Source of the DNA: Deltaproteobacteria bacterium
GTDB lineage: Bacteria; Myxococcota; Myxococcia; SLRQ01
DNA: 64,000 nt
Assembly: GCA_007130885.1 (NCBI GenBank)
Contig: SLRQ01000042.1
Span: 1,232 to 65,231 of the forward strand
Direction: 5' to 3'
A program made the position numbers and the translations under genes. Shown here piece after piece: positions 12,748-16,349 of this stretch (the first letter of the stretch is position 1; each line of letters begins with the position of its first letter). The notes under the pieces are model-generated. The model did no database searches, was not told where the DNA came from, and was given only the letters and a program-made list of their open reading frames with translations.

Positions 12748-13161
12748 ATGGAAAGCAAACAAAAGGTACTAATCGTTGACGATGACGAGGATCTGCTCGA
12801 GCAGCTTACTCAGATTCTCGAAGGTGCCGGCTACGAAGTCCGCACGGCGGCAAGTCAGGCCGAGGGCGAAGAGATGTTGCTCTCCATTCGTCCGGATTTG
12901 GCTGTCTTTGATCTCATGATGGAGGAGATGGACAGCGGATTCATGCTGTCACATTACCTCAAGAAACTATACTCTGACGTTCCAGTCATATTGCTCACCG
13001 CGGTGACATCGTCAACCGGCCTGTCGTTCCAAGAGTCATCCACTGAAGCCCGTAGCTGGGTGAAAGTAGATGAGGTTCTCGACAAGCCGGTCCGAGCCGA
13101 GCAGATCAAATCGGTAGTGGCTCGCCTATTGAGCGAGGTGAAAGGAGCGCCCGACGGGTAG
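12748..13161 (+). CDS. Single-domain response regulator (receiver only)
   Basis: LIVDDD, FDLMM (phospho-Asp), LLTA, KP; no output domain. Confidence 0.9.
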   Translation: MESKQKVLIVDDDEDLLEQLTQILEGAGYEVRTAASQAEGEEMLLSIRPDLAVFDLMMEEMDSGFMLSHYLKKLYSDVPVILLTAVTSSTGLSFQESSTEARSWVKVDEVLDKPVRAEQIKSVVARLLSEVKGAPDG

Positions 13162-13180
13162 GCGGCCCATTGAGGCATTT

Positions 13181-15193
13181 ATGTCGATCCCACAGCTGGT
13201 CAAAACAATCAAGGAACGCTGTCGAGTTTGTTATACTTGTGTACGTGAATGTCCAGCTAAGGCCATACGAATCGCCGAGGGGCAGGCAGAGGTCATTGCC
13301 GGTAGATGCATAGGGTGTGGAAGCTGCGTTTGTGTGTGCGGACGTGGCGCCAAACAGGTTCTTGATTGCGCCGGAGGCGTGAGAACCCTGATGGACGGGA
13401 CTGCCCCCGTCGCGGCTCTTTTGGCACCCACTTTCCCAGTCGAGTTCAGGGAACGCTCGGCCGAGGAAGTGGCGGGAATGCTTCGGGCCATTGGTTTTGC
13501 GAGCGTTCATGAAGTCGGCTTTGGTGCCGACCTTGTAGCGTTGCGTTATCGCCGGCTTCTTACCGAGAAAGAAGGAAGGCGTTATATCGCGTCAACCTGT
13601 CCCGCCGTTGTCGGCTATGTTGAGCGCTACTATCCGGATCTCATCGACTCATTGGCCCCCATCGTTTCCCCGATGGTCGCAATGGCCCGGGCACTGCGAG
13701 CACTACATGGAGAAAAGCAGAAGTTTGTCTTCATAGGACCGTGTATCGCGAAAAAGGGTGAGGCGTCGGATGCAAACCTCCGGAAAGAGATTGACGCCGT
13801 ACTTACGTTCAACGAGCTCCGTACAATGCTTGATGAGGCCGCTGTGGATTGGGATGATGTTAGTCCTTGCGGCTTCGACCCACCTTTTGCGGGCCGCGGA
13901 GCCCTGCTGCCAATAAGCAGAGGGCTGCTTCATGCCGCGGATATTCGCGAAGATCTGGCTGAAAACATGGTGGTGGCGGCCGATGGTCGAGTCGACTTTC
14001 TCGAGGCGCTGAAAGAGTTCGAGTCCGGCGATCTTAGGGTTCGATTGTTGGAGGTGCTCGCCTGTAAGGGTTGTATATCGGGACCCGGCCTGCGGCTCGA
14101 CGAGCCGCTTTTCAGTCGACGCAGGAGGGTCAGTGAGTTTGTGCGCGGTAAGAAGTCTTCATTCGACTGGGAAGAATGGTCCAACACGTTGCGAGGACTG
14201 GTCGACCTCGATCTAAGTCGGGCTTACACTTGTCGGGATGCGCGAACCGACACGCCGAGAGATAACGAGGTTCGAAAGATTTTAATCCGCATGGGAAAGG
14301 ATTCGGAGGAAGAGGAACTCAACTGCGGCGCCTGCGGATACGAAACGTGCGGAGAGCACGCTGTGGCGATACTCGAGGGGCTGGCCGAGACCGAGATGTG
14401 CCTTCCTCATACAATCGAGCAGCTTCACAATGCGGTCGATGACCTGGCTGACTCGAATCGTCGTCTCGCAACCGCGAAGGAGGCGCTTATGCACTCGGAG
14501 AAGCTGGCGAACATGGGGCAGCTAGCGGCTGGGATTGCTCACGAGGTGAACAATCCATTGGGCGTGGTGTTGATGTATGCGCATCTCATGCGTGATGAGC
14601 ATACTAACGACCCCGAAATTGTGGAAGATCTCGAGACCATCGTCCGAGAAGCGGATCGCTGTAAGAAGATTGTCGCGGGCTTGCTCAACTTTGCTCGACA
14701 AACATCCGTTGTTCGTCAGAGCACCGATGTCAGGGGGTTGGTAGAGAGAACGTGCAGGTCTCTACCTCCACCGGAGGGAGTCCGCGTCGCCTTCGAGCAG
14801 AACCTAGAGAATCCCTTGGCCGAGGTCGATGGGGATCAAATTGCCCAGGTATTGACGAACCTGCTGTGCAACGCATACGACGCCACCGTCGATGGCGGCG
14901 GTGAGGTCACTATCAGCACCTCCGGTAATGACGAAGTCTTGGTGCTGAAAGTGACCGATACGGGTAAGGGGATTTCAGCTGAGAATTTGCCGAAGATCTT
15001 CGAGCCGTTCTTTACTACAAAGCAGATCGGTAGGGGTACGGGGCTCGGGCTGGCTGTAACCTATGGAATCGTCAAGATGCACAAGGGGGAGATTGATGTG
15101 CAATCAAACTCGGATGAGACCAAAGGACCAACGGGGACCGAAGTCACCGTGACGCTGCTTCGCAACTCAGATCCTGATGTTGGAGAGGCATGA
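13181..15193 (+). CDS. Sensory (group C, histidine-kinase-linked) [FeFe]-hydrogenase-like protein fused to HisKA/HATPase
   Basis: [12 protein letters not shown] ferredoxin, variant H-cluster motifs ASTCPAVV / GPCIAKKGE / [23 protein letters not shown]eS domain, AHEVNNPL H-box, N/G1/F/G2 boxes (NLLCNA, DTGKG, FFTTK, GTGLGL). Confidence 0.9.
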
Positions 15194-15194
15194 A

Positions 15195-16349
15195 ATGAAT
15201 GAGCATCTACATTTGCTGATTGTAGATGACGAGCCAGGCATGTTGGCGGGCGCTGTCCGTGCGCTCAAGGATTATCGAGTCCAGACACTCGATGAATCGG
15301 AAGAAGTTCGCTTCGAAATCGCAACTGCGGAGAACGGTGAGGTCGCGCTGCGCAAAATCGCAGGCGAATGCCCGGATATTATTCTGCTAGATTATAAATT
15401 GCCCGGAGTGAACGGATTGGAGGTATTGCAGAAAGTTACGGAACAGTACCCCGACGTCTTGACGATAATGATCACTGCCTATGCCACCCTGGAGACGGCG
15501 GTGCTTGCCACTAAGCAGGGGGCTTACGATTTTGTTGCAAAGCCTTTCACTCCCGCGGAGTTGAAGAACGTGGTGCAAAAGGCGGCTAGGCATATTCTGC
15601 TTGCTCGACGTGCAAGGCAGCTTGCGGAAGAACGCCGGAGAATTAGATTCGAGTTTATTTCCATTCTCGCCCATGAACTCAAGTCACCGCTGAATGCCGT
15701 CGAAGGATATCTCAGAGGTATGAGGGATCACGTTGCGGGTGAAGAGCTTGCCGCTTATGACAAGTCCATTGCGAGAAGCCTGCTCCGCGTCAACGGTATG
15801 CGAAAGTTGATCTACGATCTCCTGGACTTGACCAGAATCGAAAGCGGAGAGAAGAAGCGAAACCTGACTAGAGTCAGTGTTACTGATATAGCCAAGGAAG
15901 CATTGGCGAACCTGAGCGAGGATGCCCTCGGGCGAGATATTGAAATGGAGTTGGAGTCTACTGCAAATGTTGAGATGCAAGCGGACCGCGGTGAGCTGGA
16001 AATTATAATGAATAATCTTGTTTCCAACGCAGTGAAATACAACACAGATGGAGGTCGAGTAGGCGTTCGTGTTCTCGCGGGCGAAGAGACGGTGATCATA
16101 GAGGTCGACGACACCGGCATCGGATTGACGGAAGAGGAAGCGGCCCGTCTCTTCAACGATTTCGTGAGGATCAAGAACGAAAAAACTCGAGGCATACTCG
16201 GGTCCGGATTGGGACTTGCCATTGTGCGAAAGCTCGCCTCCTTGTATGGAGGTGAAGTCTCCGTCGAGAGTACGCCTGATGAGGGCAGCAAGTTTACAGT
16301 GGTATTGACGCGTTATCCCCGGAGTGAGGCTGCCTCGATGGGTAGTTAG
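15195..16349 (+). CDS. Hybrid receiver-histidine kinase
   Basis: LIVDDE, LLDYKLP receiver; AHELKSPL, NLVSNAVKY, DTGIG, GSGLGL. Start taken at ATG 15195 after GGAGAGG. Confidence 0.9.
   Translation: MNEHLHLLIVDDEPGMLAGAVRALKDYRVQTLDESEEVRFEIATAENGEVALRKIAGECPDIILLDYKLPGVNGLEVLQKVTEQYPDVLTIMITAYATLETAVLATKQGAYDFVAKPFTPAELKNVVQKAARHILLARRARQLAEERRRIRFEFISILAHELKSPLNAVEGYLRGMRDHVAGEELAAYDKSIARSLLRVNGMRKLIYDLLDLTRIESGEKKRNLTRVSVTDIAKEALANLSEDALGRDIEMELESTANVEMQADRGELEIIMNNLVSNAVKYNTDGGRVGVRVLAGEETVIIEVDDTGIGLTEEEAARLFNDFVRIKNEKTRGILGSGLGLAIVRKLASLYGGEVSVESTPDEGSKFTVVLTRYPRSEAASMGS

Follow-up and report, generated by a model that had tools for sequence, protein, structure and literature searches.

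A candidate hydrogen-sensing relay of a hydrogenase-type histidine kinase and two receiver proteins encoded in a bifurcating hydrogenase operon

We analyzed a 64,000-nucleotide stretch of DNA (hereafter, the window) from an uncultured Deltaproteobacteria bacterium (Myxococcota in the GTDB lineage; contig SLRQ01000042.1), in which a hydrogenase operon encodes, between hydA and hydG, a stand-alone receiver (REC137), an [FeFe]-hydrogenase fused to a histidine kinase (the sensor kinase) and a second histidine kinase headed by a receiver domain (the Rec-kinase). We consider it rather probable that the sensor kinase is a soluble, hydrogenase-type sensor that feeds the H2 level, by way of the Rec-kinase and REC137, back on the bifurcating hydrogenase.

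The genes rex-hydC-hydB-hydA-REC137-sensor kinase-Rec-kinase-hydG-hydF, identified by their matches to Pfam and NCBIfam profiles, make up one tight co-directional block on the + strand. An earlier note, made from the letters of this DNA, had placed three relay genes at 12748-16349, and all three were found where it put them: the 137-residue receiver-only protein at 12748..13161, the 670-residue H-cluster kinase at 13181..15193 and the 390-residue receiver-kinase at 15177..16349. The intergenic gaps around these genes measure 19, −17 and 3 nt, the start of the Rec-kinase gene overlapping the end of the sensor gene by 17 nt.

The hydrogenase half of the sensor kinase

Pfam divided the 670-residue protein into Fer4 (residues 10-57), Fe_hyd_lg_C (76-302; 2.1e-47), the PF04060 FeS family (380-409), HisKA (445-508) and HATPase_c (550-659). 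The N-terminal 2x[4Fe-4S] ferredoxin-like domain (13208..13351), matched by Fer4 families, contains eight cysteines (C14, C17, C20, C24, C43, C46, C49 and C53) that are invariant in 22 of 22 aligned sequences. It is followed by the H-domain (13406..14086), in which the altered motifs described in the earlier note read as claimed: ASTCP (C140), GPCIAKK (C188) and LACKGC (C295 and C298). The note also held that the four H-cluster cysteines are kept and that the proton-transfer cysteine is gone. Conservation was scored over 69 orthologous triplets, taken from the window and from the 68 of 80 sampled loci that contained the complete set of relay genes (the other 12 loci were left out), and both statements proved right: C140, C188, C295 and C298 are present in 69/69, and a cysteine occupies the relay position in 0/69. 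K191 and E194 of the L2 motif (MPCxxKxxE-type) are kept along with the four cysteines in every triplet.

When the sensor was aligned without gaps with the two HydA proteins of the genome, C140-P141 fell on the Cys-Pro of the L1 motif and T139 on the proton-relay position (C299 of CpI), which across the 69 sequences is occupied by Asp (29), Ser (20), Thr (16) or Ala (4). The equivalents of E279, E282 and R286 are not kept in the sensor, as judged by eye from the HydA alignment. The M353 position is Gly (Gly186) and the M497 position Leu in all 69 sequences, and the L3 motif is shortened to CxxC; PAS-type paralogues share both the shortened L3 and the Gly at the M353 position. The FeS domain that the earlier note had seen is present, but the note missed that it constitutes a Cx2Cx4Cx16C motif (C382, C385, C390 and C407; 14324..14401) typical of sensory hydrogenases. 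Its four cysteines are invariant and are spread over exactly 25 residues, from C382 to C407, in 69/69. Overall, the ligand cysteines, the phospho-accepting His and both receiver Asp residues are invariant in the 69 triplets, and this conservation of anatomy is far beyond chance.

The putative sensory enzymes TmHydS (group C, with PAS) and TamHydS (group D, without PAS) are reported to lack C299 and the proton path, to have other residues in place of M353 and M497 and to carry the Cx2Cx4Cx16C motif, and their activity is low (PMC8163306). To place the window's protein, we built a FastTree phylogeny of 75 H-domains taken exclusively from the loci of this analysis, and so lacking TmHydS and TamHydS: 40 of the kinase-fused rows (every second of 78, and the window), 16 of the HydA rows (every fourth) and the full set of 19 PAS-type rows. 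The kinase-fused H-domains came out as a single group (SH-like support 85), with 18 PAS-type paralogues as its neighbors (99) and the 16 HydA rows separate from both (100). These 18 PAS-type rows are Bacteroidota-type, and the 19th, from an Elusimicrobia locus, stood apart. Kinase-domain forms have been given HydDB class C3 (PMC9324843, PMC11406978).

The H-cluster ligands with their Lys and Glu, the missing relay cysteine, the N- and C-terminal cluster motifs and the grouping of the H-domain all agree with sensory group C (M2f, HydS type); the PAS domain that this group has behind the C-terminal cluster is absent. Membership of group D (M2e, TamHydS type) was also considered and was ruled out by the Gly found at the M353 position in 69/69, M2e enzymes being reported to have Ser or Thr there (PMC8163306). 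Judged by its sequence, the 670-residue protein is a sensory-type [FeFe]-hydrogenase, for which binding of [2Fe]H, low turnover and a response to H2 are predicted.

Linker and transmitter of the sensor kinase

In line with the earlier claim that the protein has no PAS domain, a Pfam scan of residues 300-450 at E<=10 returned PF04060 only. The same scan, applied as a positive control to two PAS-type paralogues (L029 and L034), recovered PAS families (8.4e-5 and 4.7e-4) behind their FeS motif. The stretch from C407 to the DHp domain is instead a heptad-repeat signaling helix (14402..14512). C407 and H454 are 47 residues apart in 65 of the 69 sequences and 40 residues apart, exactly one heptad less, in the other four (L010, L012, L046 and L064), and Leu or Ala recurs at every seventh residue from 408 to 450. 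An AlphaFold2 model of the protein shows no secondary structure other than helices between residues 303 and 473, with a mean predicted local distance difference test (pLDDT) score of 73.6 (the H-domain lies mostly at 80-95), and contains helices at 408-426 and 437-473. The nearly constant C407-H454 length, the heptad steps and the Leu/Ala periodicity together point to a register-sensitive signaling helix.

The transmitter (14513..15157) comprises HisKA, with H454, and HATPase_c, both above their Pfam cut-offs. Its H, N, G1 and G2 boxes are intact, with H454, N560, N564, D593, G595, G597, G619, G621 and G623 invariant in 22/22 aligned sequences, as befits a class I (HisKA) histidine kinase.

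Distribution and synteny of the three-gene module

Of 8000 candidates scored in a protein search, 7308 matched at E<=0.001. The best 120 matches listed are 652-711 residues long and 57-100% identical, and all carry PF02906, PF04060, HisKA and HATPase_c; a PAS accession was found in none of these 120. Counting one genome per species, at least 570 species genomes contain a relative (570 of 602 pattern-matched stretches encode one). The earlier note over-rated the PAS-less kinase fusion: such fusions have already been described from genomes, beside hydABC and rex, and occur in hundreds of species. DNA of the relay region itself (12700-16400) was also seen outside the source: 81-93% of its sampled words were present in three DNA runs from two studies (a possible source run being excluded), which are labelled soda lake or alkali sediment metagenome; no RNA run was listed for this region.

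Synteny was read from the sample of 80 loci, whose open reading frame (ORF) calls were scored with phmmer. The loci are labelled Planctomycetota, Hydrogenedentota, Bacteroidota, Myxococcota, Acidobacteriota, Elusimicrobiota, Verrucomicrobiota, Fibrobacterota, Thermoleophilia, Melainabacteria, Clostridia, Desulfobacterota and others. A Rec-kinase gene lies behind the sensor gene in 71 of the 72 loci that offer at least 1.9 kb of room, and the lone miss (L028) has a match inside an over-long ORF call. A REC-only gene adjoins the sensor gene in 64 of 69 loci (downstream in 54, upstream in 10) and is thus lost in 5/69, compared to 1/72 for the Rec-kinase; hydA is directly upstream in 68 of 73. The multistep relay proposed in the earlier note is therefore supported by a three-gene module that is kept across many phyla with all its phospho-sites intact.

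The order seen in the window, with the REC-only gene before the sensor gene, occurs in 10/10 loci with a HydB longer than 950 residues and in 1/70 others (L005), where the contig ends within HydB but the part present matches the tail of the fusion. Expressed by HydB architecture, this order was found only with a 1000-1090-residue HydB-GltD fusion, in 10/10 fused loci plus L005 and in 0/69 others. The loci concerned are L005, L009, L013, L020, L023, L028, L046, L073, L074, L078 and L079, and their HydA proteins also cluster together. REC-only genes also head other hydC-hydB-hydA operons, in L019 (6246-6695), L073 (12604-12978), L074 (12578-13075), L079 (12069-12440) and L028 (2091-2636, minus strand). 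In these five loci and in L075 and L080, a REC-only gene shares an operon with hydCBA although the sensor gene is located elsewhere; small receivers thus recur as operon mates of bifurcating hydrogenases.

Among the 51 loci whose sequence extends 900 nt or more past each end of the block, rex is in or beside the block in 38: at its head in 20, directly behind the Rec-kinase in 15 and elsewhere in 3 (two of which are at the head, hidden by overlapping ORF calls); it is absent from 13. Bacteroidota-type loci have rex directly behind the Rec-kinase and contain a second, divergent PAS-type sensory hydrogenase (~625 residues) upstream of hydC on the minus strand; these double-sensor loci are L029, L034, L035, L037-L039, L041, L044, L045, L048, L051, L052, L055, L056, L062, L063, L066 and L071.

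No DNA-binding response regulator was conserved within ~9 kb in the 80 loci. GerE-type regulators, confirmed with Pfam, were present in five Bacteroidota/Melainabacteria loci, three of which (L026, L040 and L053) have a Cache-HisKA_3 kinase directly upstream; a sixth locus, L058, has an upstream response regulator of the same size that was not scanned, and one locus, L015, has a sigma-54 activator. In the window, receiver domains were detected in REC137 and the 390-residue protein only, and no DNA-binding response regulator was found, among the ORFs that were scanned (not every ORF). The earlier statement that the system lacks a DNA-binding output thus stands as far as a conserved response regulator is concerned, but it overlooked rex, which encodes a DNA-binding regulator in the same operon. 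The final target proposed in that note may be encoded elsewhere or be reached post-translationally.

The two receiver proteins and the order of phosphotransfer

The proteins flanking the sensor, described in the earlier note as a receiver-only protein and a receiver-kinase hybrid, are just that according to Pfam and to their intact phospho-sites. REC137 (Response_reg, 1.1e-17) has D55 as phospho-acceptor and keeps D12, D13, D55 and K113 in 69/69; T84 is Thr in 63 and Ser in 6. Its AlphaFold2 model (pLDDT 84.6) is a normal (beta-alpha)5 receiver in which helix 4 is split by a low-confidence loop, and in this region T90, G91 and W104 are invariant in 33/33 orthologues and F94 is nearly so. The 390-residue protein consists of a receiver domain (D72), a helix, HisKA (H166) and HATPase_c; D17, D18, D72, K122 and H166 are kept, and K122 and H166 are separated by 44 residues, in 69/69. 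With both a phospho-Asp and a phospho-His, it has the architecture of an LvrB-type Rec-controlled kinase, and by analogy its autokinase activity is predicted to be switched by phosphorylation of the receiver domain.

To examine how the phosphoryl group might travel, we compared the subfamilies that the kinases and receivers resemble. The first three NCBIfam kinase models for the core of the sensor kinase were AtoS (192.9 bits), VirA-like (161.3) and ZraS (159.4), and in the PDB it matched ZraS (120 bits) over HK853 (59.5). The receiver domain of the Rec-kinase matched a NosR-family receiver best (76.6 bits), followed by AtoC (74.7), NtrC (72.5), NtrX and LuxO, all above PhoB (62.8), and its PDB matches were NtrC1 (69.3 bits) and HupR (57.8). 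The core of the Rec-kinase, by contrast, had PnpS (176.8 bits) and PhoR (170.6) on top and matched HK853 (105.7) over ZraS (59.6) in the PDB, while REC137 matched PhoB first (52.9 bits), above AtoC (40.0), with RpaA (46.8), MtrA (45.8) and RR468 (38.9) against NtrC (27.4) in the PDB. Kinase and receiver subfamilies usually travel together. The pairing of AtoS-like with AtoC-like and of PhoR-like with PhoB-like matches therefore hints, weakly, at a transfer from the sensor kinase to the Rec-kinase and on to the stand-alone receiver. Three-tier routes of this kind have precedents in the CheA3 -> CheS3 -> CheY3 topology, which has been proven in Rhodospirillum centenum (PMC3868531), and in the LvrA -> LvrB -> LvrC cascade (PMC13269768).

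Proposed mechanism and alternatives

In the mechanism that we favor, the input would be formed by the two N-terminal [4Fe-4S] clusters, an H-cluster without a proton relay and the C-terminal four-cysteine cluster, whose last ligand would connect to the phospho-accepting His through a single heptad-repeat helix. Autophosphorylation at H454 would change with the state that the H-domain takes under H2, and the phosphoryl group would most likely pass from H454 to D72 of the neighboring Rec-DHp-CA kinase. This kinase, switched as LvrB is, would phosphorylate or dephosphorylate D55 of REC137, which would act by binding another protein because it has no output domain. In this way, the relay would feed the H2 partial pressure back onto the bifurcating hydrogenase of its own operon, alongside Rex, which would report NADH/NAD+. 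That H2 is the signal is suggested by the likeness of the sensor to TmHydS and TamHydS.

A more specific version, in which terminal REC137 uses its invariant split-helix-4 patch (T90, G91, F94 and W104) to bind HydABC or Rex, with no DNA-binding partner of its own, strikes us as a long shot. If true, H2 would act back directly, and perhaps post-translationally, on the production of hydrogen by anaerobes of more than 10 phyla. Two predictions of a complex between a Rex dimer and REC137 each scored 0.00 (threshold 0.32), which, for runs made without controls, speaks neither for nor against binding.

Several points weigh against the proposed mechanism. H-cluster binding and an H2 response are extrapolated to the kinase-fused family from its relatives, the target of REC137 is one that we infer, and the eight invariant cysteines of the ferredoxin-like entry domain leave room for a redox sensor. 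The C-terminal cluster of TamHydS stays oxidized under 1 atm H2, and the authors of that study regard its redox state as an unlikely signal carrier (PMC13104023). This makes a simple model in which reduction of the cluster moves the helix doubtful; a conformational change of the H-domain may instead carry the signal to the helix, and linker residues 405-454 have a pLDDT below 50 in the AlphaFold2 monomer model. As for the order of transfer, the family-level rankings differ by only ~12 bits, and covariation between DHp and receiver domains (weighted mutual information with average product correction, four pairings, 69 triplets) was dominated by the same few clade-marking columns and did not discriminate between the pairings. 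The receivers encoded beside the 7 closest paralogues of the sensor kinase core match the receiver domain of the Rec-kinase in 5 loci and REC137 in 0, and those beside 11 paralogues of the second kinase core match the former in 4 loci and REC137 in 1. This test is confounded because REC137 scores low against all receivers, and it shows only that REC137 is divergent.

The small ranking margins also leave room for an arrangement in which the sensor kinase phosphorylates REC137 directly. The Rec-kinase would then serve as an additional input, as a phosphatase or as a side branch leading to some distant response regulator, and REC137 perhaps only as a phosphate sink. Of the 64 REC-only genes that adjoin a sensor gene, 54 are placed immediately after it and ahead of the Rec-kinase gene, and single-domain receivers that act as sinks or inhibitors exist, FixT reportedly being one. 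By contrast, the Rec-kinase is the more constant partner (71/72), the family matches pair AtoS-like with AtoC-like and PhoR-like with PhoB-like, and a reading of both sequences shows that the kinases diverge in the DHp residues that follow the His, which suggests different partners. On balance we regard direct transfer as possible, yet less probable than the three-step order.

We think it unlikely that the module reports ferredoxin/NADH redox poise or electron flux in place of H2, with N-terminal clusters that swap electrons with ferredoxin or HydABC and an H-cluster that is an electron sink setting a reference potential. The entry domain with its eight cysteines would suit such a role, as would the place of the sensor beside hydA (68/73 loci), and the N-terminal clusters of TamHydS are its main electron path (PMC13104023); a paper in mSystems, moreover, treats the sensor as the 'T' subunit of BfuABC (PMC11406978). 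However, the full H-cluster site (the four cysteines, K191 and E194) is kept in 69/69, which a plain ferredoxin sensor would not need, and NADH/NAD+ is already covered by Rex from the same operon. Finally, we give very little credence to an H-domain that lacks the [2Fe] subcluster in vivo, like Nar1/Narf-type relatives, and senses Fe-S, oxygen or iron status: the L3 motif is shortened to CxxC, and the Hydrogenedentota hydrogenases of group C1, which are kept apart from the kinase-domain C3 that matches here, hardly show motifs P1-P3 (PMC11406978), but the four ligands, K191 and E194 are invariant, both the short L3 and the Gly at the M353 position recur in PAS-type sensors, the cofactor is bound by TmHydS and TamHydS (PMC8163306, PMC10055695), and hydG and hydF are next in the operon.

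Operon and genome context

Upstream of the relay genes, and all on the + strand, lie rex (6324..6965), hydC (6981..7472), hydB (7580..10852) and hydA (10936..12657). Rex, a redox-sensing transcriptional repressor, matched Pfam Put_DNA-bind_N and CoA_binding and the NCBIfam Rex subfamily NF003995 (196.7 bits, cut-off 126). HydC is a NuoE-like [2Fe-2S] subunit (2Fe-2S_thioredx, 4e-48), and HydB, 1090 residues long, is fused to a GltD/NfnB-like FAD/NAD(P) module (Complex1_51K, NADH_4Fe-4S, Fer4_20 and Pyr_redox_2). HydA, with TSCSP as its L1 motif, is a catalytic group A [FeFe]-hydrogenase (Fe_hyd_lg_C, 1.1e-94, and Fe_hyd_SSU; NF040763 'group A6', 833.5 bits, cut-off 765). Downstream of the Rec-kinase, the maturase genes hydG (16353..17747; TIGR03955, 508.7 bits) and hydF (17773..18975; TIGR03918, 547.7 bits) both exceeded their cut-offs. 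As hydE was found on other contigs of the same genome (3.78 Mb, 118 contigs), the maturation set is complete.

Just 5' of rex, two abutting inverted repeats (6280-6297 and 6297-6314, + strand) each match an 18-nt Rex consensus with 3 mismatches. The window contains 4 such matches against 1.25 expected, and 4 of 100 shuffles reach 4; the repeats at 6280-6314 are suggestive, but only suggestive, of putative Rex sites. Scans of 5900-19400 for promoters (4 found, 5.5 expected) and terminators (12 found, 12.5 expected) stayed at background.

Both catalytic HydA proteins of the genome (window 11341-12657, and L094:3855-5618 on the minus strand) have TSCSP where TSCCP is canonical, and thus a Ser at the usual position of a [4Fe-4S]H ligand; the same change is reported for HydA of T. 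tengcongensis and Ignavibacterium album (PMC3362086). The second hydA-hydB pair of the genome (L094, G000:C21:42000-61900) adjoins genes for a KaiC-like ATPase and a HisKA-HATPase-REC hybrid kinase.

Divergently from rex, positions 2-5951 of the minus strand hold a heterodisulfide-reductase/Flx-like cluster (MvhD/FlpD, an HdrA-like protein of 672 residues, a CCG-domain HdrB-like protein and an HdrC-like protein). The three genes directly 3' of hydF (19107-24163) encode an acetyl-CoA hydrolase/transferase-GNAT acetyltransferase fusion (632 residues), an ADP-forming acyl-CoA synthetase-like protein (714 residues) and a DRTGG/AAA_26 protein, and may form an acetate/acetyl-CoA or protein-acetylation module.

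Significance and comparison with known systems

The 670-residue kinase is an ordinary member of a widespread, catalogued family that probably reports hydrogen levels. The window is one more carrier of this family, from an uncultured bacterium, and nothing in it is categorically new; our modest additions are the tallies of how often the three genes occur together, the finding that linker lengths keep heptad register, the association of the REC-first gene order with a fused HydB, and a tentative wiring. A search of literature full text, supplements aside, turned up neither biochemical work on any kinase-fused protein nor an account of the three genes as a module. H2 sensing by group C and D [FeFe]-hydrogenases is so far putative, and a study of TamHydS from 2026 called for the partner and read-out of such enzymes (PMC13104023). 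The kinase-fused form offers an assay handle: because its read-out is built in, comparing autophosphorylation with and without H2 would be a one-tube assay, with the adjacent receivers as the next steps. Because the family is encoded next to a bifurcating hydrogenase in many phyla, among both fermenters and syntrophs, its logic matters for understanding how H2 levels are set in anaerobic communities.

The closest known counterpart is 'BfuT' of the sub-type V BfuABC clusters of Hydrogenedentota and Caldithrix abyssi, a HydDB group C3 [FeFe]-hydrogenase with a histidine-kinase domain (PMC11406978). Like the window's sensor, BfuT combines an H-domain with a kinase, lacks PAS, is encoded directly downstream of hydA in a hydC-hydB-hydA block and has rex nearby. 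PAS-less kinase fusions near rex have also been noted in Elusimicrobia (10.1101/765248) and in Ca. Lernaella (PMC9324843), and the second, PAS-type copy upstream in Bacteroidota, found here in 18 Bacteroidota-type tree rows, had been noted as well (PMC11406978). By contrast, the receiver-only and Rec-kinase genes go unmentioned in the available text of all three sources, and the term 'response regulator' has no occurrence in that of PMC11406978. The window further differs from the BfuT clusters in that its receiver-only gene precedes the sensor gene and its HydB carries the GltD-like fusion.

HydS of Thermotoga maritima (TmHydS; group C, type M2f) shares with the sensor the N-terminal 2x[4Fe-4S] domain, the lack of C299, the Gly at the M353 position and the Cx2Cx4Cx16C motif, and is also encoded beside a group A bifurcating hydrogenase (PMC8163306). 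However, it has Ser rather than Leu at the M497 position, and it ends in PAS and signals to separate proteins, whereas the sensor described here continues into a coiled coil and HisKA-HATPase. HydS of Thermoanaerobacter mathranii (TamHydS; group D, type M2e) resembles the sensor in having no PAS, a C-terminal four-cysteine cluster, Leu at the M497 position and no relay cysteine. It differs in the M2e residue at the M353 position and in having no fused transmitter, its kinase-like ATPase being a separate neighbor. The [NiFe] regulatory hydrogenases (HydDB group 2b), with their HoxJ/HupT kinase and HoxA/HupR, provide a functional parallel: in them, a hydrogenase of low activity passes information on H2 to a histidine kinase controlling hydrogenase genes. 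Their metal site and fold are unrelated, though, sensor and kinase are separate proteins, and the output is an NtrC-type DNA-binding regulator of which the present module has none.

The Rec-kinase shares its Rec-helix-DHp-CA build with LvrB of Leptospira, the prototype Rec-controlled kinase (PMC13269768, PDB 8vc9). In LvrB, once the receiver domain is phosphorylated, the central helices assemble into a coiled coil and the catalytic domains are released, and helix lengths prefer multiples of seven (PMC13269768); the linker of the 390-residue protein is fixed at its 44 residues. The two are not close in sequence, the NCBIfam LvrB model being outside the 25 best matches of the 390-residue protein, and the LvrB partner LvrC has an anti-sigma output, whereas REC137 has no output domain. 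The Che3 cascade of Rhodospirillum centenum offers a parallel in wiring, with a kinase that acts on the receiver domain of a Rec-kinase and a single-domain receiver that is phosphorylated only by that Rec-kinase (PMC3868531); it differs in taking its input from a chemoreceptor and CheA, in controlling cyst formation and in having no link to a hydrogenase.

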